From Elusimicrobiota bacterium (lineage in GTDB: Bacteria; Elusimicrobiota; Elusimicrobia; F11), in the NCBI GenBank assembly GCA_003140895.1, contig PLLH01000118.1, positions 11,494 to 75,493 on the forward strand: a stretch of DNA of 64,000 bases. Direction: 5' to 3'. The translations under genes and the position numbers were made by a program. The notes under the pieces are model-generated. The model ran no database searches and was not told the origin of the DNA. It saw nothing but the letters and a program-made list of their open reading frames with translations. Below are positions 1 to 25,678 of this stretch, in pieces (position 1 is the first letter of the stretch; the number at the start of each line of letters is the position of its first letter).

Positions 1-255
1 TCCCCTTTTTTAAGTTGATGGACTTTTTCCGTCACCTTCCCGACTTTCATCACGCTCACTTCCAAAACATCGTTGATGGATGGTTTGGAGGACGGCGTAA
101 AAGGGGATTCCCCGACGCCCGGAATGGTCAGCTCAATAAATTGTCCGGTGCGGAAGGGGACCGGCTGCTCCGGTTTAAACCGAATGGTTTTAATGGTCGG
201 AGTCTCGGCGGTGACTTCCAACACCTCCGCTTTCAGAATCCGATAGGGATTTTTC
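1..255 (-). CDS. FAD/NAD(P)-binding oxidoreductase subunit (ferredoxin-NADP-reductase fold; AsrB/HydG/PyrK-like). Only the N-terminal part is in the window and the gene continues past the window start.
   Basis: Minus-strand ATG at 255..253 overlaps the stop of the upstream gene (ATGA coupling). Translation begins MLEKNPYRILKAEVLEVTAETPTIKTIRFKPEQPVPFRTGQFIELTIPGVGESPFTPSS, a typical FAD-binding beta-barrel of FNR-like electron-transfer subunits. Confidence 0.55.
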
Positions 256-1290
256 TCAAGCATTGGCAACCAGCCTCTTCAAAACTTTTCGGATATCAAT
301 TTTGGCGGGGCAGGCGCTGATGCAGCGGCCGCAACCGGTGCAGGCATACACCTTGAGCACTTTGGGGAAGAAGTCAAACTTCTTTTCAAAACGGTTCCGA
401 AGCCGCATCCATAATCTTTTCCGGGGGTTCGCTCCGCCGGCCACCCGAGCGTAATCTTTAATCATGCAGGAATCCCATACGCGAAGGCGGGCCATCTTTT
501 TATCATCTTTCTGATCGTAGAGAAAGAAACAGTGGCAGGTGGGACAAATATTGGTGCAGGCTCCGCACTCAACACAGGTCTTGGCTTCTTCTTCCCAAAT
601 TTTGGAGGCAAAGTTCCGTTCGATGATTCCTTGAAACTTATCCTCGGTGGGAACCTGAAATTTTTTGAGGTTCTCTTCAACGGCCCGGGTGGTTTTGGCG
701 CGCTGCTCTTCCTTGGCCCGCAACTCGCTTTCGGCGGCATTTTTAAATAAGGAAGGATATTTTTCTAAAAGCGCTTTCCCTTTCTCCGACCCTTCTTCGA
801 CCACGTAACCTCCGGGAACGGTGGAGAGGTTCAAGTCAAAATCCCGATGGGGATAGGGTTTAATTCCAAGGGCGATGCAAAAGCAGGTGTCGATGGCGCA
901 GGTGCAATCGGCGCCAATAATTAGATTTTTCTCCCGGTTGTGGATATAAAAAGGATCTTCGAGACCGTTATTTTTAAAAACGAAATCCTGAATTTGAAAC
1001 CCTTTCAGGTCGCAGGCCTTAACCCCCACGATGGCGTACGGTTTGTGATTTATTTTGGGCGGTTCGGCGGAAAAATTCTCGGCCACGAATTCTCTGGCGC
1101 GAGAGAAAAAAGCTTTGAGCGGTTCGAAGGGCCGGACTTCTCCGACGACAGGGTGGTCATTGGCATTAACGAATTTTTTGAAGAACCGCTGAGAACCGTT
1201 TTTAACGGGGAAGAAAACGTCGAAGTCAAAGGACAACTTGTCCAGAAAGCCGGTGAAATCGGCATCCTTAAGAATAAAACTTTTTCCCAC
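256..1290 (-). CDS. 4Fe-4S dicluster protein, anaerobic sulfite reductase subunit A / sulfhydrogenase beta (AsrA/HydB)-like.
   Basis: 344 aa with two CxxCxxCxxxCP ferredoxin motifs (CVECGACTNICPTC and CTGCGRCISACP). GTG start at 1290 is preceded by AGGAG. Gene is tightly coupled to the downstream FAD-subunit gene. Confidence 0.6.
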   Translation of the reverse strand: MGKSFILKDADFTGFLDKLSFDFDVFFPVKNGSQRFFKKFVNANDHPVVGEVRPFEPLKAFFSRAREFVAENFSAEPPKINHKPYAIVGVKACDLKGFQIQDFVFKNNGLEDPFYIHNREKNLIIGADCTCAIDTCFCIALGIKPYPHRDFDLNLSTVPGGYVVEEGSEKGKALLEKYPSLFKNAAESELRAKEEQRAKTTRAVEENLKKFQVPTEDKFQGIIERNFASKIWEEEAKTCVECGACTNICPTCHCFFLYDQKDDKKMARLRVWDSCMIKDYARVAGGANPRKRLWMRLRNRFEKKFDFFPKVLKVYACTGCGRCISACPAKIDIRKVLKRLVANA

Positions 1291-1361
1291 CCTGATTCTC
1301 CTTTAGGCGGTCAACTATTTAATTTAGGATTTGACGCTGGATTGTTTAGGAATGCACGATG

Positions 1362-1389
1362 TTTATACAAATTTTCGCAATAGCGTCAA
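1362..1389 (-). promoter_or_regulatory. Candidate sigma70-type promoter for the Fe-S/FAD oxidoreductase pair.
   Basis: Minus-strand TTGACG (reverse complement of 1384..1389), a 16-nt spacer, then TATAAA (reverse complement of 1362..1367). It sits about 70 nt upstream of the GTG start in the 129-bp gap after the giant gene. Confidence 0.3.
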
Positions 1390-1419
1390 AAGTTTTCCAT
1401 CTTTTGGAAAAAGGAAAGG

Positions 1420-4400
1420 TTAAGCGGCTTTTAACGTTTGACTGGTTTCGTCGACGGAGCGTTGAACGTCCGGAGCCCAACGGGCCGAGAGAGCTTTGAG
1501 GAGTTCGTCGATCAAGAGATAAATCGTTTCTTTTTGGAGGAAGATTGAATTGGAGTCGAGGCCGTTCCAATTAAAGGCGGGCGCGTTTTGAGATGAAACG
1601 ATATTCATGGATCCATGCGCCTGAATGATTCGCGCGACGATCGGGAATTGAACCGCGTTTTCTCCGAAATACGTTTCCAATGTTTTGAGGCGCCATTCCC
1701 CCCCTTGCAAGGCGCCTGTTTGGTCCCCGTCCACAACGGAAACAAATGCCGGATTCACCAGCCCCCTTAACCGTTCCGCCAAAGCGTTTGTTTGAGCGAC
1801 CAGCGTTGTTGGCGTATGCGGGTCGAGGCTTTTCACGAGTTCTTCGAGGTGGGCTTCCAGGCTTGGATCGACGAAAATGAGAGTTCCACTGTTTTTCCTG
1901 AGCGGATCGGTTCGAAGAGTTTCCCCCAACCCCAGGTTGATCGGCGTCCCTTTCAGCAAGGACTCAAGCACAATTTGAGTGGGTGACATCGGAACCTTGC
2001 GGTTTGAGTTGTTAACCGCGCCGATTCTGTTCATGCAGGATAGTAGTGGTTTCACCAACAGGAATGATCCTACAGGCGTGAGGATGCCCCAAACTATATT
2101 GATCCCACTGAGCAATTTGGAATAAAGAATAGACAGAGAGCGTGCCAGCGGGTTGTAAACCCAATAGAGAGCGCGAGAAACGGAGGGTCGCGTTTCCACG
2201 CGGACCAATGGGATCTCCGGCAGGGAACTCGAGGCGTTCCAGTCAGGATCGAACAGCTTGTCATAGCTTGAATGCCAGTGGTGGTTGTGTCGCGCCCATT
2301 CAATAATTAAGTTGTCAATTTCTGAATAGTTGAGGTGAGGGCCGCCCTTTTGCGCCAAAAGGTCTCCTATGGCTCGCATATCATCCATGGAAAATGGGCT
2401 CATCCCCGGAAGAGGCTTGCCGGTTAATAAGTCTCGCCCATCCATTAGTCTGCCCGTGAGCAAGAGCACGTGATTGGAAAGATTTACGTGGTCTATAATC
2501 ACCGCACCTAAGCAAGCAAAGATGATTGCGCGCGTGAGGAGAGCTGGTTTGTCCTCGATCCCTTTTCCACTAAGCGCGGCAGATTGAGCCAGATGGATTG
2601 GGTTGTTGTAGTCTTTTGGCAACTGATCGGCATACGCGGCGACGCGATAGCCGTGGTCTCTCAATCCCTCTAATTCAAAAATGTGAGCACCTCCACGGAC
2701 AACGACCAACGCTCCAGAAGGATGTTCCCGCTTGTAGTCATCAATTTGATTCATCAATGCCTGGGCCCGTAATTCCAACATCTTGGCTTGGTCCCTTGAA
2801 AAAGATGCATATTCGTCCATGGCTTGATTTAAATGCCCTTGCCGGAAATGGTCAATGGCCAAGAAGTAATGAATTTCCGACAGGAAGTTGAATCGGACTG
2901 TATCTCCTGTTGGTATTTCTTCCAATGTTTGAATGTCACTTATGTTTTTTAAATGTTCATTCATTCGGGATATAAGCGGATTCTTCGGCTCGGCGGAATT
3001 CGGAGTGCGATTATACCAATCGACATATGCGCTCATTCCGGAGGCATTATTGCTGTCCTCAAGCAGGGCGATAAGATCTGGAAATTCAGCGTGGTCCTTC
3101 CATCTCTCGGCAAAATTAAGAAGGGCGTTAATTTCCGTATCCGTCAGCCCTGACTGACTTTGTTCCGCGCGAAACGACTCTCGATTATTTCGATATCTCG
3201 TTCCAAGAACATTCATATCGCGGTCAAAATCGTTGTAAGGACCTCCCCCACTCTCCTGCAAAACAGCGACTGACAGAGCCCCTCGTTTGCGGGCGTCTTT
3301 AATTGCTTCTTCAACGGAAGAGCTCATATGGTCATAGTCACCCTTTCTCCCGTGAGGTCCCAGTACGTAATAAATAAAGTCATGCTGTGGGTTCTGAATG
3401 AAGTAAGTGAGCGATTTCAGGAGAATAGCGATCACGATTGAAAAAATAACTGAACCCGCAATCCAAAAGCCGAGGGTTGGGTTAAGAAATGTAATGACGG
3501 GCCATGACAGAAGGGCGATGGCGGTTGTTAATTCGAAAACCGTGAACCCGTCGCGGGGGCCGGGCTTTTTGTGTGGCGCTTTCTGAATGAAGTTATCCAC
3601 TTCGTCTGTCAGTTTTTGTTGCCGGTTGTGGCGCTTGCGTTTTTCTTTCACGTCTTTCCCACCCATCCGAAGACTGACAATTGAATAGATGAGAACGAGG
3701 CCGAGCAGAATTCCCATGGTAACAACGGCCACAAGGGAGGCGTAAAAATTCGAAGCCAAACTGACGGGGGACCATCCCTGCTTAAAGTAATTGGTCAACC
3801 CGGCGGAGGCAACGATACTCAAGATAACAATCGTTTTGACGGGCCACGAAAGACTGTAGTCTGCTTTGGCGAACCGGTAGAGGAAATAAAAGAAAACAAA
3901 GGTCACAAACCACAGAATGTTGGTGGCGATGTTGATGGGTCCCATCATCCAGGAATTGGAGAGGGTCCCCACCATCAGAAACGTGGCTAGATAACCAATG
4001 AGGAGCAAGGTGGCGGAGAAGGAGAACGAATCTTTTTTCTGGTAGATGCGATCCAAGGACTTGCCGTGGCTATAGCGGCTGATCACCACTCCTAAGAGCA
4101 AATAGCCCAGGATACACAACGGGATGGAGATGATGAGCGTCAATAGGAAAGCCGGTAAGAGATCATTTCCTGCGACTCCAACGCCCCGGCCCAAATTGAG
4201 ACTCCTCTCAATCTCCCTCATGCTCCGGCCTTGCGCCCATAAATTCTGCCCTTGCGCCAAAATCCCAGTGATGGTTGCCCATAGTAGAAGAAGTTTTGTC
4301 GTTTGTCCGCCCAAGTGGGCGCCATCGGCGGGCGAATCGGCGGTTTCGGAAGGACGAGTGAAAACGACCAGGGTGTCAGCGTCTATTTGTTTATCGCGAT

Positions 4401-7400
4401 CAGCGTAGCCGCTAAAGCCTGGGAGAAAGCCACCGAATTTCCCCATGTGCCCAAAGGACAAAGCCCAGCGACCCTCTTTGCCGGCGAGTTCAGTTTGAAG
4501 CAGGGCCACCATGCGTTTGTCCTCCTCTAGGTTAAAGGAGGCGAGGAGTTCAGCCAATTCAATCCGCGCGGGTTTGCTTCTGGCCCCCTGGCCCTGATCG
4601 GACACGACGATTCGCCCCCCCGGTTTCATCAGCGCGGTCAAAACCCCGACGTCCGCCGGAGTCAACCCGATCGGATTCAATTTGCTCCTTGTTTCAAGAT
4701 GAAGGGTCCCGACGCTCCCCGGTTGAATCAGCGTTGGAAGCTGCGCTATGGGGCCAAAGTGAACCTTGACCTTGTCTTCAACGTCAATGACCAGGGCCGC
4801 TTTTTTAAGAAACCGCGCCCATTCCGGTTTGGTGGTAACAAAAACGACTTTGCGGGAACCCTTTTTGATTTCAGGCAAAGTGAAGAGGCCATGGAAGTTT
4901 GAACCGATGTCCAGATAAAGAGAGGCGGAGTTCCCCGGATTTTCGGCGTCATGAAGAAAAGGAGGAGTCTCCGCGGCATCCCACAATTTGTTCATATCTC
5001 GCCGGAGAAGGAGCGCGTCGCTCGTGGCGCGGTAATCCAACAGTTTGTTGGCGAAGGCCGGGTCGCTTTCGGCCCTGGAAAGAATGGCGGGAAAAACGCT
5101 CGGAATTTTGATATCGGGAGTGGATACCTTCGACACCCTTCCCTTCGTGGCCGCTTTTGCGGCGGCCCGAATTCGCGCCTGAAAAACGGTCTTGGCGTAC
5201 TTTTCAGAGAGCTCCGGTATCGATTCGAGAAGAGAAACGAAGAGATCTGAATAATTATGATCGGGGAAACGCAAGCTGAGATAATAATATTGGCTGGCCA
5301 CATCGGCGAAAGAATATCTCGTGCCAGAAGAGATCCCGCGGAGATCTTCTTCCGGGTCGGAGCGCCTTTCCATGAATTGCCTTTGTACTGATTTCCCCAT
5401 CATTGCCAGTTCGTGCTTGAAGTAGGCGTCTCTTTCTTGGGGGTCGGTGGGAATAGTGGAGGCCAACTCGTCCCATCCCTCCGGCTTTTCCAGGCAATCA
5501 AGAAAGACGTTGTATCGCCCGGCCAGAAACAGAACCAAATTCACCAAGGACTGAATGGTTTCCTTGTCCCTTTTCTTTGGAAAAAGAATGACAGTTTGCA
5601 CCCAATCCAACGCGTCATCCTCGAGAATGATTTTTTCCTCTTGAAGGAGTTTTCCTATTTCGTTCCCGATGTTTTCTGCCCATTGGGGCGGATTTCCTTT
5701 GATCTTTTTTGAAATTTCTTTGAGTTGATTCTTAAACTGAGGGAAATCGCCTTGGGCGCCGTCAATTTGGCGTTTGAATTCTTTAAGTGATAAAGAATTT
5801 TTCTCCGCGGAGTTGCTGTCGCTCAACCCCGGCAAGGCAACAGTCGCCCCCAGCATCAAAATTGACCCAATCCACAGACCCAGAAGCGGACTCATCCAGG
5901 TGATTCCGGCCCACGAAAAGAGGCCCATGGCCACGGTGAGTTCGTTCAACGCAAATCCGTTCCGTGAGCCGGGCTTGTTGGGTCGTTCCGATCTCATTGC
6001 CTTCGATTTATTAGCGTTAGCAAGATCGATACGCGACACCATGGGATAGACGCTCGTCTCAACCCCATCAATCGTTTTCTTTTTCGCATGGGGAGGCTGA
6101 GAAGCGTGCTGGAAACCTTCAGAGAGAAAGAACGGGAGATTTTCAATGGATCTCTCCGGGACGGCAAGGATGATTTTTTCATTATTTACATACCGGGCGG
6201 AGTTCTTAACGTTCTCCATCAGGCGGTGGCCCACGCCCAAGCGTCGGTAGTCCGGGTGAACGCCAATTTCCGCTATGGATTCTTTCCCCTCTCCATATCT
6301 AAACGCCACGGCCCCGATGATGTGTCCGGCAATCGTAGCGACCCGGGTCTCGATCTGGGCGTCATGAGCGGGGGAAAAGACGTCTCTTCCGTTGAACCAG
6401 GGACGATCGCTGCTGAACTCATCCCAGAGTATATCGGCCATATCTGATCCATTTGTTTCCATCATCGGTCTTATATGTAAAAAATCCTGGATCAATTTTT
6501 TACGAAAAGCGGGGTAATCGACAATTTGGGATTGTGTTAACTCAAGCGTCTTGTCGAGCAGGATTTTAGAGATTGAGTCGGTGATAAGCTCTGCTCGTCT
6601 CGGGAGCGCGTCAACGACTTCATAAGCAAGGTCTTCAATCGGAAGACGGGCAATCCGCGCGCGATCCGAGGTTGCGTTAAAGAAGGAGCGGCGTTCATAC
6701 TCATTCGGTTTGGGTCCCCAAAGGGAGGAGCGCTCTTTTCTGATGCCTTGTTCGTCATAGGACCAGTTGGGATGTTCTTTGAAAAATACCAGGCGCTCCA
6801 GAATTTGCCTTAACGAATGCGGGTCGAGATCAGGCCGAAGCGCGAATTTCGTCAATAACGTGAGAGAATTGGGGGTATTTGAACGCGCCAACACGTCTTC
6901 AAAGATTTTCCTTTTCCCTTCCTTGTCGGCGGATCTGAAACGCGTCATTTCCGGCGGTTCGGAGTGCTTTGTTATAGGGGTTCTGTCGCTATAATTCATG
7001 TTGGAAGCGTCAAATATCAGATGAGAGATGAGTGCCCAATAAGGCGAAGCGCCGAGGTAGGGAAGAACGGGATAGAGAGCAAAAATAAAAAGGCGAACAA
7101 GATTGATCCAGCGAAGCGGCGGCCCGCGGATGTCGGAGTTGGGGTGAACCCACTCAAAAACGATGTGAGCGGCAAAGAGCGGAATGAGCCACGCGAGCGC
7201 GGCAAAGATTCCATAATTGTTTGTGAGCCACGCCGCCAATGCCCCTTCCCCCGCCGCCCAGATCAGCGAAGCGGCTGAGATGAGCGTATGGGTTGTTTCC
7301 TCGCTGAACTTGGCTGAGATCCAGTCGTGAATCGCCGGAAGCGTGAGGATGAAGTAGATGAAAGATAAAGGGACTGTCCCTTGAGAACCGGACCCATTGA

Positions 7401-10400
7401 CACGGCCAAGCGTTCGTGTTTGGACGATGGTGATGGTCCAATGGCCAGGCTGCTGCGGGTCGGCTGTTATGACGACTTCGATGTCCCGGGGATTTTTTGC
7501 TTGAGCCTCCGTTTGCTGGCCGATCTCGCAGAGGGACCGGATCAAGCGATTCGCGTCGGGAAGTTTTAAAAATTCCTTCGTAACGGGAATGGTTTTTGTG
7601 CCGCCGGTTTTGGAGAGAACCGAGCAGCGTTTTTTATTTCCCGGAGATTTTTCGACAATCCTGTTGCGCGTCTTATCCCAGATGATCTGGGTTGGAGATC
7701 CGGCAAATCGGTTGTCATCTCCAACCAGCGATTCCCCCAAGCCCTGAACGGCCTCGATCACCAGATGGCTGGGTTCATTCAGGGCCACATCCGAAGTATG
7801 GATGACACATGAAAAATCCGCCGGTAAAGACGGAACAAGCCAGGCCGCCGGGAAAACGGTCGTTTCATTAATCTGATACTTTCGTCTATTCTCGAAGGCC
7901 TCGTCGGTCCAAACCGAGGCCATCACCTTTTTAATGGCGGGCCAGAAGGCGCGCTTTCCAACAATGTGCGGGATGGTGAGATAAATCCCCGCTCCAACAC
8001 CCGGATATTTTTCAAGATCCTGGGCGTTTGTTGAATCTCGGACAAAAGTCCCTTTTTCCCATTGGGGGTGTCCTTCCGCCTGTTCTAGCGTGGTCCAAAA
8101 CCGAGGGGCCAGGGCGTTTGTGTTTAATCCCATTATAAGACGTCTTATTTTTTTAAGTGTTTGAGCAGCCTGGAGTCCTTCGGCTCCGGTGAGTGATTGA
8201 ATCAGTTTTTTGAAATCAGCATAAACTCCGTTTTTCTTTAGAAGGTGGATAAAGGTTCTATAGGGGATTCCCACTCCTTTGGCGAACTCCGGGTGAATAC
8301 GGGGATCGGACAAGCGAGGGGAGTGGAGGGAGAGACGATTGACTTGAGCCGGTTTGTTGCCGACGACATTGGGCCGGACCATCTCGGGATCATTTGGGGC
8401 GAGGAAATAGTTGTCGCCTTCCAGCGTGACGGAGGGCAGTTGAACTTTGATGCGCCGGGGTTTTGAAATCCGGGGAAGATCGGATTTCGTCGCTTTTCGA
8501 ATGGAGGCGGACCGGTTTGTCACAGTGAGCACAACCATCTGGCCGTCGAGAGACCTTAGTAATTCCGGCCCGGGCCAAACGGCGAGAGGAATATTGTCGG
8601 CCAGAGCGCGCGCCCGGGCGTGTGAGGTTTTTCCCTCATTGATAAAAGTGACGATGCCGTTAAAACGGCCTTCGATATCGACGTAAGACTTTGGCAGAAA
8701 CTTCATGGCCACGATAGAGTTGCTTGGAACCCTCTTCAGGGCGGAAAGGGAAGGCTCTTCCCCCTTTATAATTTGAAGCTTCCCAACTCCTGTACCGGCG
8801 AATTCGGGGGTTGGTTTTTTAACCCGCTGGGGAGCGTAAGAGGTCGGTTGAGCGAATATTTGTGAAGCCTGTTTCCCCTCTGGTTGGAGTTTTTTTGAGA
8901 GGGTATTGATCTCCTCCATTGTTTCCCGCAATTTTTCTGCATAATCATTTGGGCAGTAGCGTTTCTGTAAAAAATCAGCTATTTGTTCGCCGAGTTTCGT
9001 TAAGAGAGTTTCATCGTCTATGGCCGAAAGAATTATTTTGCTGTTGTTTGGGTTAAGATAGCCGAATAAACCGGCAATCCCGCTTAAATTGTACTGAACC
9101 AGGTAGGTGTCTCCCTTAAATGTCATGGGCGCGTTTCTATTTTTGAGAGCCAATCCGCGTTTCACAATTGCGCCGAACAAGTCCATCTCCATCTTCCCGG
9201 ACTGAACTGTCGATTCCCATCGTTCGTGATTTCCCTTGACGCAGGCGAGGATCGTCGCCGCCAGATCCGGGTACCAGTAATATATGGCCCGCAAGGTGTT
9301 GGCGGCCGAGTCAAAAACGGGGTGATTGAGAATAAAAATATCGCCGATGCCCTGGATACTGTTTCCTTCTTTTGAGAATGGGAGAGTAGACTCGAAAATG
9401 TGCTCAACTAATTCTTTCTCGTAGTCCGGCTTTGGCCATTTTGGATTCCAATGTTTCGGGCCGGTTTTTTTCGGATTTGAAAGGGAAAGCTCCGTGCGGC
9501 CAAGATTGGCGAGCAATAGAATTTGGAAGAACTTCCTTAGCGTTTGGAGAACAGCGGGCGGCGCGCGGCCTGGGTAGTTTTCCCCCCACTGAACCAGCCC
9601 GTCGTTGGTGTAGTGGGCGAGAACAAGAAGGACGCTGGCGATCGAAAGTGGAAGCCATGGGTTCCAATCAATGGCGAGGCCGAGAACGCTCAAAATCCCG
9701 AAGGAGATGAAAAACACCTTTCGGAGCTGGTTGACGGCCGCGGCGCGGTTCTGAGAAATTAACTTTAATTCCTCAGCACTTAGCGTTTCCCGCTCCCCTC
9801 GCGTCACGGTATGAAGCCAGACGAAAAATGATTTATTGACCCACAAGCCGAGGATGAACAGAGAAGTTGACGCGACGGCGACAAGAACAGATGACAGTAA
9901 CGATAGAGACGTGGGGCCATAAACGCCGAGTGACCAAAGTAACCCCGTAAGAGGAAGGCCCAGTGGGATCACGCCGAAGACAAGGGACTCCAGGCCCGCC
10001 AGATAGTGGCGGTAGGGCCCCCATTTGAACAGGCTGAGTTCGCTCTCCGGCATCGACGTTGCCGATAGTTGGGCCATGACCGCGGCATGCTTAGCCTTAG
10101 TGATGGCCTGCTGGCGGTCGGCGAAATTGTCGAGCAGCGCTTGTTCTCCCATGAGTGTTGGGTGGGCCGCCACTTCTTCAAGAAGGGTATCAATCGACTC
10201 TGGGATGGCCGTCTCCCTTAAAATCTCAAGGATGGATTCGCCCATGCTTTTGTCATCAATCATCTCAGCCATAAAGCCTATACCCTGTACACCAGCCGTA
10301 TTCCCAATATGGTGATCGACAAGAGGAGGCCTTTCAAAGACGACTTTCCCTGCTCTCACTCGTTCTGTGGCGTAGGACATCATTGCATTGAGATCGTCGG

Positions 10401-13400
10401 TGATTGCTTTGGCTCTGGGAAAAACCCGCTTTACGCCAGCCAAATCCCCTTTGATGGCGGATAAGCGTGTTTCCTTAATTATCTCGCGCAGTTCTCTCAA
10501 ATAGGGAATCATCAAAGAGAAGAATTCGGCAGAATCTGCGATTACCTCATCTGGAACCACTCGTTTTTGAGGAGTCTCATCTTCCTGGTTCCCCCAATGA
10601 GGAAAGATGGGTTGGTAAGCGTGGAATCGTTGGGTTTTAAGAAGACGGTTCAGAACCCGCGACGTGTTCATCCACAGCAGCCAGCGGTGAATAGATCCAA
10701 GCCCTTTATCTTTCTCTTCAATCTTATTCCAATCAATAAGAACGTCGAGCAGGGGAATGTTTTGGCCTCCGATCTCGATTTGAGCGTCCTTATGAATATC
10801 CTCCAAAAGCTTGCTTAGGATTTCGATCAGTTTTGTGTTGGGATCGACACCCGGGTCGCGGACATATCTGTTGTAGAGGGCTCGTCTTTCTGAGGGCGTC
10901 CACTGCGTCCAACCACTCTTGAAGTTCTGCCTTCGGTTTGGTGGGAAGAACAGAAGAAGGATGAAGTCGTTTATGATTTCTCGGATCCTAACCGTTATTG
11001 GATCGGCGGGATGATCCCCCTCAAGGACGTGTATGGTTTCTTCCAGGAGTGACTTGTGCCAGTACTTGTAGTGGGGATCGACGATGACGATCCTTTTCGC
11101 ATCGGGATCAATACCGAGCGCCTCAAGAACTTGCCGTGGGGAAACATCCAATCTTTGCGCGATCACTTGAAGGTGGTCGTTGGTCAAATGGGTTCCCCAC
11201 GCGTGGGTCTTTCTCTTCCAGCCCTCATTTTCAATCGGGGAGTGCGTCCCGCCCCCGACGAATTTGCCGATGTAGAAAAGTTGATCCTCGGATCCCCAAG
11301 GCATCAATAATCCGTAGGCTGGATCGCCGACCTGAGGAAAAAGAACGGCCACCCCTTCGTTTTGCAGAATCCGGTGGAGGTCCTCGGCTGGGGGTAATCC
11401 CGGGATGGGAGAGCTTAAGGAGATTTCCCTTTGTTGTCGCCGGCTTTTCTCATTTTTCTTGTCCAACAAAGTGTCCCCTTTAGAATCGGTACGGGTGCCT
11501 TTCACAACGTATGCGGGATCCTTGACGAGCACGGTCGCGATGGCCTGCTCAAACCCTGTTCTCCGGGCCAGTACCCCCCCGATTTCATAGGCTTTCTTGT
11601 GTTTTTCAGGATCCCTATTTAATAACTCTAAAACCACGTTTGCTAAATACTCACCGTATTCATAACTAAAACCGGGTTCCAATTTAAACCGCCCGGTGAA
11701 CCTCGAAAACCAGCTTTCGTGCCGCTTGGCCAACTTTCGAAACCCCTTCTCCCAGGAGGAAGGCGGAAATTCAGCGATGATTTCACGGACGGTCTTAGCA
11801 CTTGATCCGCCATAGTGGCTGGTTGATATCCCCAATTCAGCGGCTCGTATGGTTCGAAAATAACTGGCCGCAAAAGCGTTCGAGCGGTCTCCCATGGCTA
11901 GGATTGGAAATACAACGTGGGTGAGCTCATGGAAAATATTCGCACGCAAGGAGGACTCATCAGGGAACCGCCACTTGAAAACCAATACTTTTTTACTGAA
12001 GTTCAGCTTGACTCCGTTGGCGCCCCGAAGGGTTTGAACCGTCGCTTTAGCTCCAAACAACAAAGACCAAAAACCAATCATCTTCAAAATCGGGATGAAA
12101 TCCCAGCCGATCAAAGAAAACGGCAGAAAAACGATGGCGAGCGGAACAAACCAGAATAGAAACTGAGGCACAATTAATCTTCGAAAGGCTTGCCACGGAC
12201 TTGAAGCGACTTCAACTGTCCTTCTTAACGGTTTTTCTAATCTCCTCCCTTTTGAACTTTCGGCATCCCCAGGAAAACCCGTCACCTCAATAAAGTGGCC
12301 CACTTCCTCCCGGACTATTCTTTCGTCGGCGGAAATTTGGGACGCCGGGTTCCTTGCGGCCATAACGTGAGCGTCAAATGGCATGTGGAAAGGAAGAGCA
12401 AAGTAGGGTGAGAATCCGAAACGAGGGAAAGCAATATAGAGAGCAAAAATAAAAAGGCGAACGAGATTGATCCATCGGAGCGGCGGCCCGCGGATGTCGG
12501 AGTTGGGGTGAACCCACTCAAAAACGATATGAGCGGCAAAGAGCGGCATGAGCCACGCGAGCGCGGCAAAGATTCCATAATTGTTTGTGAGCCACGCCGC
12601 CAATGCCCCTTCCCCCGCCGCCCAGATCAGCGAAGCGGTTGAGATGAGCGTATGGGTTGTTTCCTCGCTGAATTTGGCTGAGATCCAGTCGTGAATCGAC
12701 GGAAGCGTGAGGATAAGGTAGATGAAAGACAAGGGAGTTGTCCCTTGAGAACCTGACCCATTTATAGACTTGATACGTCTTTCGACTCGCTCCTTGGTTC
12801 CCAGCTTTGTCACGATACCCTTGGATTGTTGATTAATCGTGTTTTCAGGAGGGTGTGAAATATTCTGGCGGAAGGAATTAATTTCCAATATGCGGCTCCG
12901 AATGCGTCTAAACAATTCATCTTTCGAATCGCTTGAAGATAAGGTTTGATGAAGATCGGATCTTAACCGTTCCAGAGCCGGGCCATATTCGTCCTTGCGC
13001 AGTCCGCCACGGGCAATATACCTGGCTCTCATATCATGGAATCGGTTCATCTCCCCCATGAGTCTTTCGATAAAGAGATACCTTTCTACGGGCTTGACAT
13101 AGGGTCGTCTAAAGAATTCCAGCATAGACTCCACTTTATCTTGGACTGTTTCATGGACAAGTTTATGGAACGAGATTAAGATTTCTCTTCCAGATGCGGG
13201 ATGGATAAGCAGAGGTTTTCTGGTTTGGATAAGTGTTCTTTCTTGAACCGTAATCTGAAGATCATTCGTTGCGCTTATTAACTTCTGCTTCAGCCTTTCT
13301 ATGAACTGAAGTTCCAAATCACTGTCCAGAAAATGCGAAAATTGAATATCCAAGTCATCCACCGCTGAGAATGGGACGTAACCCTCTTCATCCTGGAGGT

Positions 13401-15687
13401 AAAATGCGCTCCCATAGGCTTGCGCCAAAACCCGTTGGCCATCGGGAGCCACCATCTCATCGGCGGTTTCCTGAATCATTTTCCGAAGAAACCCGAAATT
13501 GATTTCGTAATTTTTGAATCCCTTCTGTCTCGCAAAAACGGGATTCTTTATCTCAGCCAAGGAAAACCCCGAGAAACTATCGTTATAGAATAGTGACGCG
13601 GAGGTCTCTCTCCCCGATATCCGGCCCGAGCCGGGTCCGACATCGGGTTGGGAAGAATCCCTCATCATCGCCATCCCCACCACAAACGGCGCCATTGAAA
13701 GGAACGCGACTATTTCCTTTGCGTGGATCTTCATCCAATCCCAACCGAGGGCCATCCATTCGGGGTAAAGCAGGCTGACGAGGGCGCTTGTTGTGAGGAG
13801 GGCTGAGAGAGTGAGAGGGGTGCGGATGCTCTTCATCCCCCATTTTTCATCAATGGCAATCGTTAAAGATTTGGATGTGCGATTTGAGAGGGCCGTGATG
13901 TGGATAAGACCCGCTTTGGCGAGGTGGATTGTTGCGCGGGAGGCGATCCTCATTCTTCTTAAAACTTTCTCAACGTATTGTTGCGCGAACGGAATGCCGA
14001 TGACTTGTTTCATGACGCCTCGAGCGGCGAAGAAAAGGCCGGCTTTGGCGAACGCTGGGTTGGACACGGGCTCTTGGGCCAGGAAGAGTTTTTCCCCTTC
14101 GAAGAGCTTTTCAAGCGGGGTTTTCTCCTGAGTGAAGACGCTCAGATAGGTTGCCCCCGTTGATGAGTCCACTTTGGTCACTTTGGGAACAACGGTGATG
14201 GTGGTGAATCCGGCGTCCTGAGCCAGACGGTTGATCCCGCTTGAGTGATAGCCGCCGGTTACAAGAACCGCCACGTTGGTTTTATTCTCCCCCATGGTCC
14301 TTAAAAGGTTATTCGCCATCAAGGTGTCGCGCGCGTCGGCTTCGGAGTAAAATTTTTCAAACGGCGAAAAATTTGGTTGATGGTCTATGGACTGATACTC
14401 TTTCCACTCTTCTTTCGTGAGTCCAAAGTCGAGAAGTTTTCCAACAAGATACAGCCGCCGAGACTCTGCGACATCTTTTTTCTCGTCGTCCGTTCGGATC
14501 AACGACGCGTAGGTCGCGTCTTCTAAGTTGCTGATTTCTTGATGTAGCTTCTCCGCATCAATGGAGTCGGAGAGAAGGACATACTGGAGGTAATCGAACA
14601 TCGCTTTGTAATACGAAAGGTTGACGCCTTGTTTCTCGCACATGGTTTTTAAGGCTTGGTAGAAATCAGCGTGGTTGAGTTGGCCGAGACGGAACGCCAA
14701 CGTCAAATTAACGAGGGGTTGCGTTTGGTCGGCCGGCAGCTTCCTGAGGAGTTCCTCCAAAAGTAGAGAACGCTCCCGTTCAACGCGCGCGAAATCCAGC
14801 GACTTTTCAAGTTGGAGGGCGCGAAGGAAGTTGTTGAAATTGTGCCCGGGCACTTTTTTGTTATTGAACGAATTCAATAACTGCGCGTAGTCACCAAGTG
14901 AGAGGGTCCCCCTTTGGTACGCCTGGACGTTTCGGTCAAACGCTTTTAAATCGGGATTAAACCGGGTTTCTTTTTCTGCCGCCAGCGTTTGTTCAAGTTT
15001 TGCCAGTTTTTCTTTTTGGGTGGCGGTCTGCGGCGCGGATTCGCGGACGGCGTTGACGTTCGCTCCGTAGCGCGCGGCATCATCAATCCCGACGTACGGT
15101 GGCGGGGTGAGTTCGGAGACGAGAGCCGTATGAATCGGGCCTGAAATGGCGTTTTCGGCAAGCAGATGATCGGCTACCTCGCGGATGGTTTCTTTGTGAG
15201 GAAATTCTCTGAGGAGCGAAAGATCGAGCGGGGCGAAGGCTCCTTCGAGAGCCACCAGGTCCACCCGTTGTTTATTGATGAGCGTTTGGATTACGGCGGC
15301 GATGTTTTTCTGGGCTTCCCCATTCATGTGGATGTCTTGAACATGAATGATGATTTTCTGCTGAGAGCGGGACGCGGGCCTTGAAACAGAACGGATGCTC
15401 CCAAATTGAAGCGGGATGGCGCTTAATACATTTTTCAGGGAGAGGTCTTGCACATCTTTTGCCCATTTGTTGAAGTGGACATTCGCGGATAACGTGTCGG
15501 CAAAATTTGTTGGGAGCGAGGAATGGGTGAATCCCGCCACGGCGGGTAAACTCGCCAATTGGACGGATTTTTTTCGTTCCGTCCAGAAATCGGTTTCTGC
15601 TTTGTAGGCGAAGAGACAATTGGTGGAGAGAAGGGCCATGGCCAAGGCCATTGTGAGGCATCTTGAAAAGAAAGACGTATGCTTCAA
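1420..15687 (-). CDS. Giant (4755 aa) mosaic multidomain membrane protein. In order: signal peptide; Tiki/TraB/ChaN-like domain; transmembrane helices; repeated TM module; HExxH motif; phosphohistidine swivel plus PPDK_N nucleotide-binding (dikinase) module; second copy of the TM module; GNAT acetyltransferase domain; further TM clusters; second Tiki/TraB-like domain.
   Basis: A continuous 14,268-nt ORF without stops. TTG start at 15687 follows GGGAGA. N-terminus MKHTSFFSRCLTMALAMALLSTNCLFA is a signal peptide. Motifs seen in the translation: IIIHVQDIHMNGEAQ ... VLVTGGYHSSGINRL (ChaN/TraB-like, residues ~110-510); IFHELTHVVF (HExxH, residue 1253); IVTFINEGKTSHARARALADNIPLAVW (PEP-utilizer swivel, His ~2356); VVGNKPAQVNRL ... 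SVWTDEAFENRRKY ... VIEAVQGLGESLVGDD (PPDK_N, ~2440-2680); IIGAVAFRYGEGKESIAEIGVHPDYRRLGVGHRLM (GNAT, ~3115-3160); ALVVVRGGAHIFELEGL (second TraB-like GGxH motif, ~4330). There are multiple hydrophobic stretches. Confidence 0.8.
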   Translation of the reverse strand: MKHTSFFSRCLTMALAMALLSTNCLFAYKAETDFWTERKKSVQLASLPAVAGFTHSSLPTNFADTLSANVHFNKWAKDVQDLSLKNVLSAIPLQFGSIRSVSRPASRSQQKIIIHVQDIHMNGEAQKNIAAVIQTLINKQRVDLVALEGAFAPLDLSLLREFPHKETIREVADHLLAENAISGPIHTALVSELTPPPYVGIDDAARYGANVNAVRESAPQTATQKEKLAKLEQTLAAEKETRFNPDLKAFDRNVQAYQRGTLSLGDYAQLLNSFNNKKVPGHNFNNFLRALQLEKSLDFARVERERSLLLEELLRKLPADQTQPLVNLTLAFRLGQLNHADFYQALKTMCEKQGVNLSYYKAMFDYLQYVLLSDSIDAEKLHQEISNLEDATYASLIRTDDEKKDVAESRRLYLVGKLLDFGLTKEEWKEYQSIDHQPNFSPFEKFYSEADARDTLMANNLLRTMGENKTNVAVLVTGGYHSSGINRLAQDAGFTTITVVPKVTKVDSSTGATYLSVFTQEKTPLEKLFEGEKLFLAQEPVSNPAFAKAGLFFAARGVMKQVIGIPFAQQYVEKVLRRMRIASRATIHLAKAGLIHITALSNRTSKSLTIAIDEKWGMKSIRTPLTLSALLTTSALVSLLYPEWMALGWDWMKIHAKEIVAFLSMAPFVVGMAMMRDSSQPDVGPGSGRISGRETSASLFYNDSFSGFSLAEIKNPVFARQKGFKNYEINFGFLRKMIQETADEMVAPDGQRVLAQAYGSAFYLQDEEGYVPFSAVDDLDIQFSHFLDSDLELQFIERLKQKLISATNDLQITVQERTLIQTRKPLLIHPASGREILISFHKLVHETVQDKVESMLEFFRRPYVKPVERYLFIERLMGEMNRFHDMRARYIARGGLRKDEYGPALERLRSDLHQTLSSSDSKDELFRRIRSRILEINSFRQNISHPPENTINQQSKGIVTKLGTKERVERRIKSINGSGSQGTTPLSFIYLILTLPSIHDWISAKFSEETTHTLISTASLIWAAGEGALAAWLTNNYGIFAALAWLMPLFAAHIVFEWVHPNSDIRGPPLRWINLVRLFIFALYIAFPRFGFSPYFALPFHMPFDAHVMAARNPASQISADERIVREEVGHFIEVTGFPGDAESSKGRRLEKPLRRTVEVASSPWQAFRRLIVPQFLFWFVPLAIVFLPFSLIGWDFIPILKMIGFWSLLFGAKATVQTLRGANGVKLNFSKKVLVFKWRFPDESSLRANIFHELTHVVFPILAMGDRSNAFAASYFRTIRAAELGISTSHYGGSSAKTVREIIAEFPPSSWEKGFRKLAKRHESWFSRFTGRFKLEPGFSYEYGEYLANVVLELLNRDPEKHKKAYEIGGVLARRTGFEQAIATVLVKDPAYVVKGTRTDSKGDTLLDKKNEKSRRQQREISLSSPIPGLPPAEDLHRILQNEGVAVLFPQVGDPAYGLLMPWGSEDQLFYIGKFVGGGTHSPIENEGWKRKTHAWGTHLTNDHLQVIAQRLDVSPRQVLEALGIDPDAKRIVIVDPHYKYWHKSLLEETIHVLEGDHPADPITVRIREIINDFILLLFFPPNRRQNFKSGWTQWTPSERRALYNRYVRDPGVDPNTKLIEILSKLLEDIHKDAQIEIGGQNIPLLDVLIDWNKIEEKDKGLGSIHRWLLWMNTSRVLNRLLKTQRFHAYQPIFPHWGNQEDETPQKRVVPDEVIADSAEFFSLMIPYLRELREIIKETRLSAIKGDLAGVKRVFPRAKAITDDLNAMMSYATERVRAGKVVFERPPLVDHHIGNTAGVQGIGFMAEMIDDKSMGESILEILRETAIPESIDTLLEEVAAHPTLMGEQALLDNFADRQQAITKAKHAAVMAQLSATSMPESELSLFKWGPYRHYLAGLESLVFGVIPLGLPLTGLLWSLGVYGPTSLSLLSSVLVAVASTSLFILGLWVNKSFFVWLHTVTRGERETLSAEELKLISQNRAAAVNQLRKVFFISFGILSVLGLAIDWNPWLPLSIASVLLVLAHYTNDGLVQWGENYPGRAPPAVLQTLRKFFQILLLANLGRTELSLSNPKKTGPKHWNPKWPKPDYEKELVEHIFESTLPFSKEGNSIQGIGDIFILNHPVFDSAANTLRAIYYWYPDLAATILACVKGNHERWESTVQSGKMEMDLFGAIVKRGLALKNRNAPMTFKGDTYLVQYNLSGIAGLFGYLNPNNSKIILSAIDDETLLTKLGEQIADFLQKRYCPNDYAEKLRETMEEINTLSKKLQPEGKQASQIFAQPTSYAPQRVKKPTPEFAGTGVGKLQIIKGEEPSLSALKRVPSNSIVAMKFLPKSYVDIEGRFNGIVTFINEGKTSHARARALADNIPLAVWPGPELLRSLDGQMVVLTVTNRSASIRKATKSDLPRISKPRRIKVQLPSVTLEGDNYFLAPNDPEMVRPNVVGNKPAQVNRLSLHSPRLSDPRIHPEFAKGVGIPYRTFIHLLKKNGVYADFKKLIQSLTGAEGLQAAQTLKKIRRLIMGLNTNALAPRFWTTLEQAEGHPQWEKGTFVRDSTNAQDLEKYPGVGAGIYLTIPHIVGKRAFWPAIKKVMASVWTDEAFENRRKYQINETTVFPAAWLVPSLPADFSCVIHTSDVALNEPSHLVIEAVQGLGESLVGDDNRFAGSPTQIIWDKTRNRIVEKSPGNKKRCSVLSKTGGTKTIPVTKEFLKLPDANRLIRSLCEIGQQTEAQAKNPRDIEVVITADPQQPGHWTITIVQTRTLGRVNGSGSQGTVPLSFIYFILTLPAIHDWISAKFSEETTHTLISAASLIWAAGEGALAAWLTNNYGIFAALAWLIPLFAAHIVFEWVHPNSDIRGPPLRWINLVRLFIFALYPVLPYLGASPYWALISHLIFDASNMNYSDRTPITKHSEPPEMTRFRSADKEGKRKIFEDVLARSNTPNSLTLLTKFALRPDLDPHSLRQILERLVFFKEHPNWSYDEQGIRKERSSLWGPKPNEYERRSFFNATSDRARIARLPIEDLAYEVVDALPRRAELITDSISKILLDKTLELTQSQIVDYPAFRKKLIQDFLHIRPMMETNGSDMADILWDEFSSDRPWFNGRDVFSPAHDAQIETRVATIAGHIIGAVAFRYGEGKESIAEIGVHPDYRRLGVGHRLMENVKNSARYVNNEKIILAVPERSIENLPFFLSEGFQHASQPPHAKKKTIDGVETSVYPMVSRIDLANANKSKAMRSERPNKPGSRNGFALNELTVAMGLFSWAGITWMSPLLGLWIGSILMLGATVALPGLSDSNSAEKNSLSLKEFKRQIDGAQGDFPQFKNQLKEISKKIKGNPPQWAENIGNEIGKLLQEEKIILEDDALDWVQTVILFPKKRDKETIQSLVNLVLFLAGRYNVFLDCLEKPEGWDELASTIPTDPQERDAYFKHELAMMGKSVQRQFMERRSDPEEDLRGISSGTRYSFADVASQYYYLSLRFPDHNYSDLFVSLLESIPELSEKYAKTVFQARIRAAAKAATKGRVSKVSTPDIKIPSVFPAILSRAESDPAFANKLLDYRATSDALLLRRDMNKLWDAAETPPFLHDAENPGNSASLYLDIGSNFHGLFTLPEIKKGSRKVVFVTTKPEWARFLKKAALVIDVEDKVKVHFGPIAQLPTLIQPGSVGTLHLETRSKLNPIGLTPADVGVLTALMKPGGRIVVSDQGQGARSKPARIELAELLASFNLEEDKRMVALLQTELAGKEGRWALSFGHMGKFGGFLPGFSGYADRDKQIDADTLVVFTRPSETADSPADGAHLGGQTTKLLLLWATITGILAQGQNLWAQGRSMREIERSLNLGRGVGVAGNDLLPAFLLTLIISIPLCILGYLLLGVVISRYSHGKSLDRIYQKKDSFSFSATLLLIGYLATFLMVGTLSNSWMMGPINIATNILWFVTFVFFYFLYRFAKADYSLSWPVKTIVILSIVASAGLTNYFKQGWSPVSLASNFYASLVAVVTMGILLGLVLIYSIVSLRMGGKDVKEKRKRHNRQQKLTDEVDNFIQKAPHKKPGPRDGFTVFELTTAIALLSWPVITFLNPTLGFWIAGSVIFSIVIAILLKSLTYFIQNPQHDFIYYVLGPHGRKGDYDHMSSSVEEAIKDARKRGALSVAVLQESGGGPYNDFDRDMNVLGTRYRNNRESFRAEQSQSGLTDTEINALLNFAERWKDHAEFPDLIALLEDSNNASGMSAYVDWYNRTPNSAEPKNPLISRMNEHLKNISDIQTLEEIPTGDTVRFNFLSEIHYFLAIDHFRQGHLNQAMDEYASFSRDQAKMLELRAQALMNQIDDYKREHPSGALVVVRGGAHIFELEGLRDHGYRVAAYADQLPKDYNNPIHLAQSAALSGKGIEDKPALLTRAIIFACLGAVIIDHVNLSNHVLLLTGRLMDGRDLLTGKPLPGMSPFSMDDMRAIGDLLAQKGGPHLNYSEIDNLIIEWARHNHHWHSSYDKLFDPDWNASSSLPEIPLVRVETRPSVSRALYWVYNPLARSLSILYSKLLSGINIVWGILTPVGSFLLVKPLLSCMNRIGAVNNSNRKVPMSPTQIVLESLLKGTPINLGLGETLRTDPLRKNSGTLIFVDPSLEAHLEELVKSLDPHTPTTLVAQTNALAERLRGLVNPAFVSVVDGDQTGALQGGEWRLKTLETYFGENAVQFPIVARIIQAHGSMNIVSSQNAPAFNWNGLDSNSIFLQKETIYLLIDELLKALSARWAPDVQRSVDETSQTLKAA
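7072..7398 (-). repeat. Copy 2 of the 327-bp intragenic direct repeat (residues 2764-2872). It lies exactly 5364 bp (1788 codons) from copy 1, in the same frame.
   Basis: Near-identical DNA and peptide to 12436..12762. The alternative-frame ORFs 7017..7214 and 12315..12578 (both beginning MESLPRSRGS...) mirror the repeat. Confidence 0.9.
12436..12762 (-). repeat. Copy 1 of a 327-bp intragenic direct repeat (about 95% nucleotide identity) encoding a ~109-aa multi-TM module. It corresponds to residues 976-1084 of the giant protein.
   Basis: The DNA string atagagagcaaaaataaaaaggcgaac...gtcccttgagaacc recurs at 7072. The encoded peptide NGSGSQGTTPLSFIYLILTLPSIHDWISAKFSEETTHTLIS...RWINLVRLFIFALY is nearly identical in both copies. 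Confidence 0.9.
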
Positions 15688-15873: not shown

Positions 15874-16164
15874 ATGTTTCAATTCATTAAAAAAGTAGTG
15901 AATTGGTTCAAAGGGGACGCGGTTCCGCCAGTCCAGGCTGCCGCCGAGACGTCTCGTAAGGTTGCCGAGGCAGCCGCTCAAAAAAGAACCCCGGCTCTCT
16001 CGCCAACGGAAGATGTGTATAGGAAAATTATTGAAGACGCTCGCGTGGGCGATTTTTTGAAAGAACTTCAGTCCATCCCCCCCGCTACAAAGGAATTTGA
16101 AAAGTCCAAAGAAAACATGGTTCAAGAATTAAAGAAACTGAAATCTCCGAAACCCCCTCAATAA
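15874..16164 (+). CDS. Small hypothetical protein (96 aa from the ATG at 15874).
   Basis: ATG preceded by GGAG (agaggagtcattcATG). Lys/Glu-rich with no recognisable motif. The ORF track starts earlier at 15835 but has no RBS there. Confidence 0.4.
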   Translation: MFQFIKKVVNWFKGDAVPPVQAAAETSRKVAEAAAQKRTPALSPTEDVYRKIIEDARVGDFLKELQSIPPATKEFEKSKENMVQELKKLKSPKPPQ

Positions 16165-16527
16165 ATGGCTTCCTCCGACCGCAGAGAATCAAACCGGTTT
16201 CAAACCTCCTTGCCCGTCGAGATTCGTTTCTCCCCGGACGGCGTTCCGATGCAGGGAAAAAGCCTCGACATCGGTCCGAACGGAATGAGGTTGTTGACGC
16301 TTCAGCCGCTGGTGGAAGCCACTCTGATTCACATTTCTTTTCAGAACGCTTCCAACAACACCCACTGCGAAGGGCGCGTGGTGTGGACGCAACGGTCGGA
16401 AGACAACACGGAATTTGAAAGCGGGGTTGATATTCAGCGGTGGGGTGGCGGTGTTCCCGGTTCCGACGTCATCCACGAGATCCCGGATCTAAAACAGAAG
16501 AAAGACCGCCGCAACAAGTCTCGTTAA
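16165..16527 (+). CDS. PilZ domain protein (c-di-GMP binding).
   Basis: RRESNRFQTSLPVEIRF ... GKSLDIGPNGMRL matches the PilZ RxxxR ... (D/N)xSxxG signature. 120 aa. Confidence 0.6.
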   Translation: MASSDRRESNRFQTSLPVEIRFSPDGVPMQGKSLDIGPNGMRLLTLQPLVEATLIHISFQNASNNTHCEGRVVWTQRSEDNTEFESGVDIQRWGGGVPGSDVIHEIPDLKQKKDRRNKSR

Positions 16528-24412: not shown

Positions 24413-25678
24413 TTAGTTTGTTTTCGAGTCCATGAGTTTTAAAAATCGATCGAACAGATGCCGTGCGTCGTGCGGGCCGGCGGAGGCTTCGGGATGATAC
24501 TGAACGGAAAAGAGAGGCAAGTCCCGGTGCCGGAGTCCCGCGATGGAAAAGTCGTTTAGATTGACGTGCGTGCAAATGATTTCTTTGTTTCCTTTGAGCG
24601 CCCACGTGTCGTCCTTTTGTTTTTCTCCTTCGACGGCGAATCCGTGGTTCTGGGTCGTGATGTCCACGCGTCCGGTTTCCACGTCTTTGATGGGATGGTT
24701 GGCCCCGTGGTGGCCGAATTTGAGTTTGAAGGTTTTGCCGCCCAGCGCCAAGCCCAACATCTGATGGCCGAGGCAGATTCCAAAAATCGCGAACCCTTTT
24801 TCCCCCTTCTTTTGACGGGTGAGGTTGTAGTCGATCAAATCTTTGATGGTGCCGATGCCGGTCGTGACGGCGGCGGGATCGCCCGGGCCGTTTGAAATCA
24901 TGATGCCGTCGGGTTTCAAATTCAAAATCTCGGAGGCCGGTGTGTTTGCCGGAACGACCGTGACGTCGCAGTTCCGATCCACGAGACAACGGAGGATGTT
25001 TTGTTTCACGCCGAAATCCATCACCACGACTTTCCGGCGGGAATATTTCGTTGGCGTCGTATTTTTGCCGGAGTCGATCTTCTCCCTCCACTCTCCCGAC
25101 CCGTGAGTCCATTCGTACGGCTTATCCGCCGTCACAACGTGAGTCAAATCCTGGCCTTCCAGGCTTGGAATGGCCTTTGCCTTTTTGATGAGGGTTTTCA
25201 CATCTGTTCCGTCCGTTGAAATAAGACCGTTCACGGAGCCTAATTCTCGTAGGTGCTTCGTCAGGGCGCGCACGTCAACGCCGGTCATCCCCGCCACGCC
25301 CGCCTTGGATAAATAGGCGTCCAGCGTTTCGTTGGCCCTCCAATTAGAGGAGATGTTGCTCAGTTCTTGAACAACGAACCCGGAGAGAAAAATCCGGCGC
25401 GATTCCATGTCTTCAGGGTTGATTCCGTAATTTCCGATATGAGAGGCCGTCATGGCGACGATCTGCCCTTGATACGACGGATCCGTCAAAATTTCCTGAT
25501 ACCCGCTTAGCGAGGTGTTAAAAACCACTTCACCGGTTGCAGGCCGACTGTCTTTCTTTCCGCCAGGAATGGCACCGCCGGGAATGGCGCCGCCGGGAAT
25601 GGCGCCGAAGCTCCATCCGGTGAAGACGCGTCCGGTGGCTAAGACGAGAACCGCTTTGGCGCGTTTTACTGAAGCCAC
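24413..25678 (-). CDS. carA: Carbamoyl-phosphate synthase small subunit (glutamine amidotransferase).
   Basis: GEVVFNTSLSGYQEILTDPSYQGQIV and a class-I GATase C-terminus (GICLGHQ). Contains a 3x GAIPG insertion. Confidence 0.95.
   Translation of the reverse strand: MASVKRAKAVLVLATGRVFTGWSFGAIPGGAIPGGAIPGGKKDSRPATGEVVFNTSLSGYQEILTDPSYQGQIVAMTASHIGNYGINPEDMESRRIFLSGFVVQELSNISSNWRANETLDAYLSKAGVAGMTGVDVRALTKHLRELGSVNGLISTDGTDVKTLIKKAKAIPSLEGQDLTHVVTADKPYEWTHGSGEWREKIDSGKNTTPTKYSRRKVVVMDFGVKQNILRCLVDRNCDVTVVPANTPASEILNLKPDGIMISNGPGDPAAVTTGIGTIKDLIDYNLTRQKKGEKGFAIFGICLGHQMLGLALGGKTFKLKFGHHGANHPIKDVETGRVDITTQNHGFAVEGEKQKDDTWALKGNKEIICTHVNLNDFSIAGLRHRDLPLFSVQYHPEASAGPHDARHLFDRFLKLMDSKTN
25562..25606 (-). 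repeat. In-frame 15-bp x 3 tandem repeat inside carA. It encodes GAIPG x3 inserted in an N-terminal loop.
   Basis: ccaggaatggcaccg / ccgggaatggcgccg / ccgggaatggcgccg. Confidence 0.85.

Follow-up and report, generated by a model that had tools for sequence, protein, structure and literature searches.

The giant gene and the domains of its probable dikinase module

The window analyzed here, a 64,000-nucleotide stretch of contig PLLH01000118.1 from an uncultivated Elusimicrobiota bacterium, carries on its reverse strand a giant open reading frame (ORF), and our subject is a dikinase-like module embedded in the product of this gene. The ORF encodes 4755 amino acids from a TTG start or 4743 amino acids from Met13 (window position 15651), as gene callers have it, and the identical 4743-amino-acid product is on record on three contigs. 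Pfam recognizes only a PPDK_N and a GNAT domain in this protein, and about 4000 of its 4755 residues have no Pfam match, even when it is scanned as separate fragments (eight pieces, E ≤ 0.1). Residue n of the giant ORF corresponds to window positions 15687−3n+1 to 15687−3(n−1). The features that concern the module are the following:

1420..15687, reverse strand: giant ORF, encoding a polytopic membrane protein
9637..10002, reverse strand: hydrophobic (transmembrane) block that precedes the dikinase loop, residues ~1896-2017, three to four segments (Kyte-Doolittle scans)
8881..9486, reverse strand: domain X, residues 2068-2269, all-alpha with one small beta hairpin in the AF2 model; motifs HWNPxWPxP, LRAxYYxxPDxAA and H-x-W; co-conserved with the module
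8488..8787, reverse strand: phosphohistidine swivel of the phosphoenolpyruvate (PEP)-utilizer mobile type, residues 2301-2400 (family profile, fold, conserved His)
8620..8622, reverse strand: codon of His2356 in the motif K-T-S-H-A-R-A, the predicted phosphoryl carrier (conservation, alignment to the catalytic His of PEP synthase)
7402..8367, reverse strand: ATP-grasp nucleotide-binding domain of the PPDK_N type, residues 2441-2762 (Pfam, PDB sequence search, AF2, Foldseek)
6940..7416, reverse strand: hydrophobic block directly downstream, residues 2758-2916, about four segments (hydropathy, self-BLAST)

The ATP-grasp domain is recognized by Pfam PPDK_N at E = 1.9e-20 (score 73.8 bits, gathering threshold 27; residues 2468-2762 and positions 22-311 of the 328 in the profile), and a PDB sequence search matched it to the ATP domain of rifampin phosphotransferase (RPH) at E = 3e-9. 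An AF2 model of the swivel and the ATP-grasp domain (residues 2301-2762; pLDDT 88, pTM 0.83) was compared with known structures by Foldseek, in which the ATP-grasp part matched RPH (5hv1, E = 7.2e-24, 24% identity; TM 0.84 to 5hv6, the isolated RPH ATP domain), HpeI and PEP synthase; RPH and PEP synthase were among the structures with which an earlier note on this DNA had proposed to compare a model. The NCBIfam models for PEP synthase, RPH and PigC match through nothing but their N-terminal ATP region and score far below their cutoffs (46.7 bits against 999 for the RPH model NF041857, profile positions 45-300 only; 55 bits against 598 for the PEP synthase models). Invariant columns in an alignment of 14 diverse modules (A4) include His2356, Lys2445, Arg2550, Gly2649 and Gly2651 of the GLGE loop, Glu2737 and Gln2756. 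From alignment with PPDK, PEP synthase and RPH, we take the invariant residues of the ATP-grasp domain to be those of the G-x-K motif, the V-R-S Arg and the DIE...Q-x-R end. The domain runs on past the GLGE motif, which the earlier note had described as terminal, to residue 2762; the domains delimited there stand, but the end that it set at position 7648 cuts off the last ~80 residues of the ATP-grasp domain, including Glu2737 and Gln2756. What comes after the ATP-grasp domain is a transmembrane block and not a TIM barrel, and no PEP-utilizers_C barrel (PF02896) was found anywhere in the giant protein at E ≤ 1, as had been suggested from the sequence.

To collect relatives of the module, residues 2040-2770 were searched exhaustively with HMMER against 1.84 billion cluster representatives, of which 1200 matched at E ≤ 1e-3 and 150 still did so at E ≤ 1e-10. 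This search was preferred to a word-indexed one of a 5.8-billion-protein set, which proved insensitive (0 proteins with the module alone, 22 with a profile). Large multidomain proteins from uncultivated bacteria make up many of the relatives. Databases already annotate relatives as “PEP/pyruvate-binding domain-containing protein”. In the 150 best representatives the order of swivel followed by ATP-grasp is the rule, most of them carrying the swivel upstream; the arrangement to which the earlier note had drawn attention is not unique but the norm among the module's nearest relatives. Pfam PPDK_N is present in 20 of 21 relatives and GWD1_pHisD in seven of them.

The swivel lies upstream of the ATP-grasp domain, and its catalytic motif falls within IVTFINEGKTSHARARA (residues 2345-2361), so that the quoted peptides, the predicted catalytic His and the relative order of the two domains are all as the earlier note had them. 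A family profile of the swivel built from 30 sequences (A2) matches PEP synthases (8a8e, E = 1.8e-6; 2ols, E = 4e-6), Enzyme I and PPDK over their phosphohistidine domains, with the alignments in register on the catalytic His of these domains. A histidine occupies the position of His2356 in every one of the 108 relatives whose alignments span it, in a conserved (L/T)-S-H-x-x-x-R-A-R motif, and it is the sole invariant column of the A2 alignment. Fold comparison also supports the identity of the swivel.

Upstream of the swivel lies domain X, which the earlier note had missed and for which no Pfam family or solved structure was matched. The closest relative outside the same species, a 2012-amino-acid ORF from an Omnitrophota metagenome-assembled genome (MAG), is 36% identical over 752 columns (L001), and the alignment spans X, swivel and ATP-grasp as one unit, including ~200 residues upstream of the swivel. 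According to a hidden Markov model (HMM) of X, 13 of the 150 best representatives carry one to four tandem copies of it directly before the swivel; the HMM gives no match in the GWD-type representatives. A model of X together with the swivel aligned over its full length, weakly in both cases, with the substrate domain plus swivel of RPH (E = 6e-4) and with the N-domain of Enzyme I (E = 2e-3). As no homology was detected, the role of X has to be judged from its position and co-conservation, which suggest that it is probably the acceptor-binding site.

The cassette is carried on a hydrophilic loop of ~725 residues between the hydrophobic blocks at residues ~1896-2017 and 2758-2916, and from the hydropathy scan this loop presumably faces the cytoplasm. 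By a crude hydropathy count, at least three strongly hydrophobic 19-mers occur in only four of the 150 relatives, which makes a polytopic setting unusual for the module and upholds the remark in the earlier note to that effect.

Weighing the assignment against known dikinases

We consider it likely, though short of certain, that residues 2068-2762 form a complete and probably active dikinase cassette with the architecture of alpha-glucan, water dikinases (GWDs), in which X, the His swivel and the ATP-grasp domain follow one another on a soluble loop of a polytopic giant. The module is most likely a His-mediated dikinase that would convert ATP and an acceptor to AMP, Pi and a phospho-acceptor; family membership and the conserved residues point to transfer of the beta-phosphate.

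Several observations weigh against this assignment. The swivel remains below the Pfam threshold for PEP-utilizers (E = 0.013, 15.5 bits against 23.1, residues ~2321-2387), and it has no match to GWD1_pHisD (PF22973) at E ≤ 10. Of the two profiles against which the earlier note had proposed to check the module, PPDK_N thus gave a significant match and PEP-utilizers did not; because the family profile, the fold and the fully conserved His agree, we regard the swivel as established despite this miss. The Glu of the TNAEDL motif, near-invariant in the family, is Gln2556 here (TNAQDL; window 8020-8022, reverse strand), which is a caveat but does not disqualify the module. No homology of X was detected, whether to the central domain of GWD, to the rifampin-binding domain of RPH or to any solved structure. 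The fusion partners of the module are very diverse across relatives, and genomic neighbors give no clue to a substrate, either in the window or around stand-alone relatives of ~650-710 amino acids, which have genes for a DEAD helicase, an aminotransferase and a radical SAM protein next to them. Finally, the topology was read from a crude hydropathy scan and not from a trained predictor.

The weak Pfam score of the swivel and the substitution at Gln2556 could also be taken to mean that the module is a degenerate, non-catalytic relic, or that the swivel resemblance is due to chance and only the ATP-grasp domain is real. One public assembly, ENA ERZ19980630 from the same organism, adds to this in that the giant gene is split there into products of 2294 and 2428 amino acids by the loss of one G from a run of three (GGG) immediately ahead of the swivel (at about window 8782-8784; compared with L002:2850-3100). 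The frame is intact on three other contigs, however, and we attribute the frameshift, a single-base loss confined to one assembly, to an error in assembly or to a rare variant. As every family-invariant residue including His2356 is kept, we hold decay or chance resemblance to be extremely improbable.

The architecture invites comparison with GWD1 and PWD of plants and algae (EC 2.7.9.4 and 2.7.9.5), and the earlier note had likened the domain order to theirs. Potato GWD1 comprises two CBM45 domains, a central all-alpha domain, a His domain and an ATP domain (PMC13553574). Like the module, GWD1/PWD have a phosphohistidine domain followed by a C-terminal PPDK_N ATP-grasp domain, have no TIM barrel, and place the catalytic His in an S/T-H motif that opens a short helix. 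In linear order, X, all-alpha in its AF2 model, sits where the all-alpha central domain of GWD precedes the His domain, and three relatives (P0034, P0078 and P0100) that align with the module end to end pass the Pfam thresholds for both GWD1_pHisD and PPDK_N. One could therefore ask whether the module is a true GWD/PWD orthologue with glycogen or a starch-like glucan as its substrate, all the more so as one relative carries alpha-amylase and CBM48 domains. However, no CBM family, CBM45, CBM20 and CBM48 included, was found in the whole giant protein or in its eight sub-fragments (E ≤ 0.1), the module's own His domain, unlike that of GWD/PWD, misses GWD1_pHisD, identity to the GWD-type representatives is only 26-28%, and no glycogen genes occur among the window neighbors. 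X, of ~200 amino acids compared with 440 for the GWD central domain, has no detectable relationship to it, and its HMM misses the GWD-type representatives; the PDB searches brought up no structure of a GWD, and the central-domain structures named in PMC13553574 (9HA9 and 9QVI) did not appear in them. Furthermore, the cassette lies here between transmembrane blocks of a bacterial protein of 4.7 thousand amino acids. Since carbohydrate-binding domains, a GWD1_pHisD match and a detectable relationship of X to GWD are all missing, the module is GWD-like in architecture only and is no GWD orthologue, and phosphorylation of glycogen or a starch-like glucan by such an orthologue is highly unlikely.

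The closest solved ATP-grasp domains belong to another group, comprising RPH-Lm (PDB 5HV1 and 5FBS), phenolic phosphate synthetase and HpeHI, which share with the module an ATP-grasp domain, a substrate-binding domain and a His swivel, lack a TIM barrel, and convert ATP to AMP and Pi, as predicted for the module. PMC4844700 and PMC12167813 describe the same His-mediated dikinase chemistry for enzymes of the RPH kind. A small-molecule phosphotransferase of this type, acting on an antibiotic or a phenolic compound and fused into a membrane protein, would explain why RPH and HpeI give the best sequence and structure matches to the ATP-grasp domain, and also the weak alignment of X plus swivel with the corresponding part of RPH. 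The order differs circularly, however: RPH runs from ATP-grasp through the substrate (rifampin-binding) domain to the swivel, whereas here a helical domain is followed by the swivel and the ATP-grasp domain. In addition, the match to the NCBIfam RPH models is confined to the ATP region, X has no sequence similarity to RPH-like proteins or to their substrate domains, and the tandem copies of X in relatives are atypical of a small-molecule pocket. We judge a small-molecule phosphotransferase of this kind unlikely. PEP synthase (PpsA) and PPDK have homologous ATP-grasp and swivel domains, but their canonical order is ATP-grasp, swivel and PEP/pyruvate TIM barrel; here the order of the first two is reversed and PF02896 is absent. 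With the order wrong and with neither a rifampin-binding domain nor a TIM barrel, the module is neither an RPH nor a PEP synthase.

The weak alignment of X plus swivel with the N-domain of Enzyme I, which combines a helical protein-binding subdomain with a swivel, bears on yet another explanation, in which the module is a regulatory autophosphorylating histidine kinase or phosphorelay protein, akin to VadK of Mtb or Enzyme I of the PTS, and phospho-His2356 passes its phosphate to a protein, perhaps to another part of the same giant polypeptide. VadK offers a precedent, being a PPDK-derived autophosphorylating regulatory histidine kinase (PMC13400623), and the location of the module in a multi-enzyme polypeptide, with very varied partners across the family, would fit. 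The similarity to Enzyme I is, however, limited to the generic swivel fold, Pfam scans of the giant protein, whole and in pieces, detected no HPr-like or receiver domain, and no partner was identified. A regulatory role is, in our view, decidedly unlikely.

Other parts of the protein and genomic surroundings

The second Pfam-recognized domain of the giant protein lies on the next soluble loop:

6097..6441, reverse strand: GNAT acetyltransferase domain, residues 3083-3197 (Pfam Acetyltransf_7, E = 1.8e-8; Acetyltransf_1, E = 3.2e-7)

By the crude hydropathy scan, about four hydrophobic segments separate the dikinase and GNAT loops, which fits with a cytoplasmic position of both, within reach of ATP and acetyl-CoA. 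The hydrophobic block downstream of the dikinase loop is the second copy of an internal duplication whose first copy comprises residues 970-1126 (window 12310-12780, reverse strand; 74-77% identity by self-BLAST). The duplicated hydrophobic module of ~155 residues (GSGSQGT-PLSFIY...HIVFEWVHPNSDIRGPP...) thus occurs once after the N-terminal region and once after the dikinase loop, and no Pfam family matched it.

The N-terminal head of the protein, residues ~15-550 (window 14038-15645, reverse strand), gave a sub-threshold match to the ChaN/Tiki superfamily (E = 0.0016 on a fragment), and a PDB search found no relative of it. It recurs at the N-terminus of five other proteins (P0006, P0007, P0015, P0102 and P0108; 22-34% identity), all of them large and all with the dikinase module, which suggests a recurrent family of giant proteins.

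Beyond the GNAT domain, residues 3238-3327 and 4041-4130 (window 5707-5976 and 3298-3567, reverse strand) are 30% identical to each other and start with KPG-x-R-(N/D)-G-F-x-x-x-E-L followed by a hydrophobic helix. A prepilin-like (class III) signal with a peptidase site in these G-F-x-x-x-E segments was considered and found to be unsupported (Pfam N_methyl, E = 1.1 on one copy and nothing on the other; NCBIfam PRK10557, E = 0.15).

The window is a segment of a bacterial chromosome that also encodes CarAB, PurA, AcrB/OEP efflux components, UbiA/UbiD and a Fer4 protein; these neighbors show no functional link to the dikinase module. Between the giant gene and the AcrB/OEP genes lie a PilZ-domain gene encoding 120 amino acids (~16165-16527, forward strand) and an ORF of 96 amino acids (~15874-16164, forward strand), with coordinates mapped from L003, both of which diverge from the giant gene. 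A 940-amino-acid ORF at window 27684-30506 (forward strand) has no Pfam match at E ≤ 0.001.

PurA (window 25666-26961) places the host among the Elusimicrobiota, its named homologues at 77-82% identity all coming from Elusimicrobia/Elusimicrobiota MAGs. The dikinase unit has its nearest homologues (36-42% identity) in Omnitrophota MAGs, which we do not take as a guide to the host, and one Elusimicrobia protein is 33% identical to it. Given this taxonomic mismatch, it is possible that modules of giant proteins have been exchanged laterally between Elusimicrobiota and Omnitrophota. Membrane-anchored multi-enzyme giants have been described as typical of Omnitrophota in a complete-genome preprint (10.64898/2026.06.07.730766), and PPDK_N is among the domains listed for their giant proteins (West-Roberts et al. 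2023, 10.1101/2023.11.21.568195). Like the protein studied here, the Omnitrophota giants are very long, anchored in the membrane and tiled with enzyme domains (GNAT, methyltransferases). By contrast, the host in this case is an elusimicrobial one, and 4.7 thousand amino acids lie below the size classes of those studies, in which neither the swivel nor the domain order nor domain X is described.

Proposed cycle, acceptor and significance

By analogy with PPDK, PEP synthase, RPH and GWD, we propose the following catalytic cycle. ATP-Mg would first enter the ATP-grasp domain, where the predicted contacts are Lys2445, Arg2550, the GLGE loop, Glu2737 and Gln2756. His2356 of the swivel would then attack the beta-phosphate, with the gamma-phosphate passing to water and AMP and Pi being released. 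The phospho-His domain would subsequently swing from the ATP-grasp domain to the adjoining domain X, and the phosphate would be handed to a hydroxyl of an acceptor bound at or near X. A model put forward for GWD1 has the His domain resting on the central domain, pivoting to the ATP domain for autophosphorylation and then returning, with phosphate transfer to the glucan at the interface between the His and central domains (PMC13553574).

Our leading guess for the acceptor is a polymeric, glycan-like compound that would be handled at the face of the membrane. This guess is favored because (i) relatives carry X in tandem copies, an arrangement typical of polymer-binding modules, (ii) the architecture parallels that of GWD, with X in the position of the all-alpha central domain of GWD1, the proposed partner in phosphate delivery, and (iii) some relatives have sugar-handling fusion partners (Bac_transf and, in one relative, alpha-amylase/CBM48). 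A more far-reaching version holds that the X-His-ATP-grasp unit marks a class of dikinases not described before, tethered to the membrane within giant proteins of Elusimicrobiota, Omnitrophota and kindred bacteria that are likewise uncultivated. Enzymes of this class would phosphorylate a polymeric envelope or storage glycan at the cytoplasmic face of the membrane, and the bacterial pool of His-then-ATP-grasp cassettes would have supplied the catalytic core of eukaryotic GWD/PWD; we offer this as speculation that is unlikely to hold.

The domain families themselves and the GWD-type order were already known. What is new is the finding of this order as the rule in a large bacterial family of which no member has been characterized, the co-conserved domain X, and the embedding of the cassette in a polytopic giant. 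GWD/PWD have been treated as an innovation of starch-accumulating eukaryotes, with GWD confined to starch accumulators and the few bacterial copies ascribed to lateral transfer (PMC6260743). Dikinases in which the His domain precedes the ATP domain have been characterized only as the starch-phosphorylating enzymes of plants and algae; no characterized bacterial enzyme with this order was found in the literature searched, the coverage of which is incomplete and does not prove absence. The module described here is a compact, well-modelled and apparently intact copy that includes a candidate acceptor-binding domain not yet described in any database, and it would provide one of the few enzymatic footholds in an otherwise almost wholly unannotated giant membrane protein. 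Should its acceptor prove to be a glycan, the module would be relevant to how starch phosphorylation arose; a protein or lipid acceptor would add to the chemistry known for the family.

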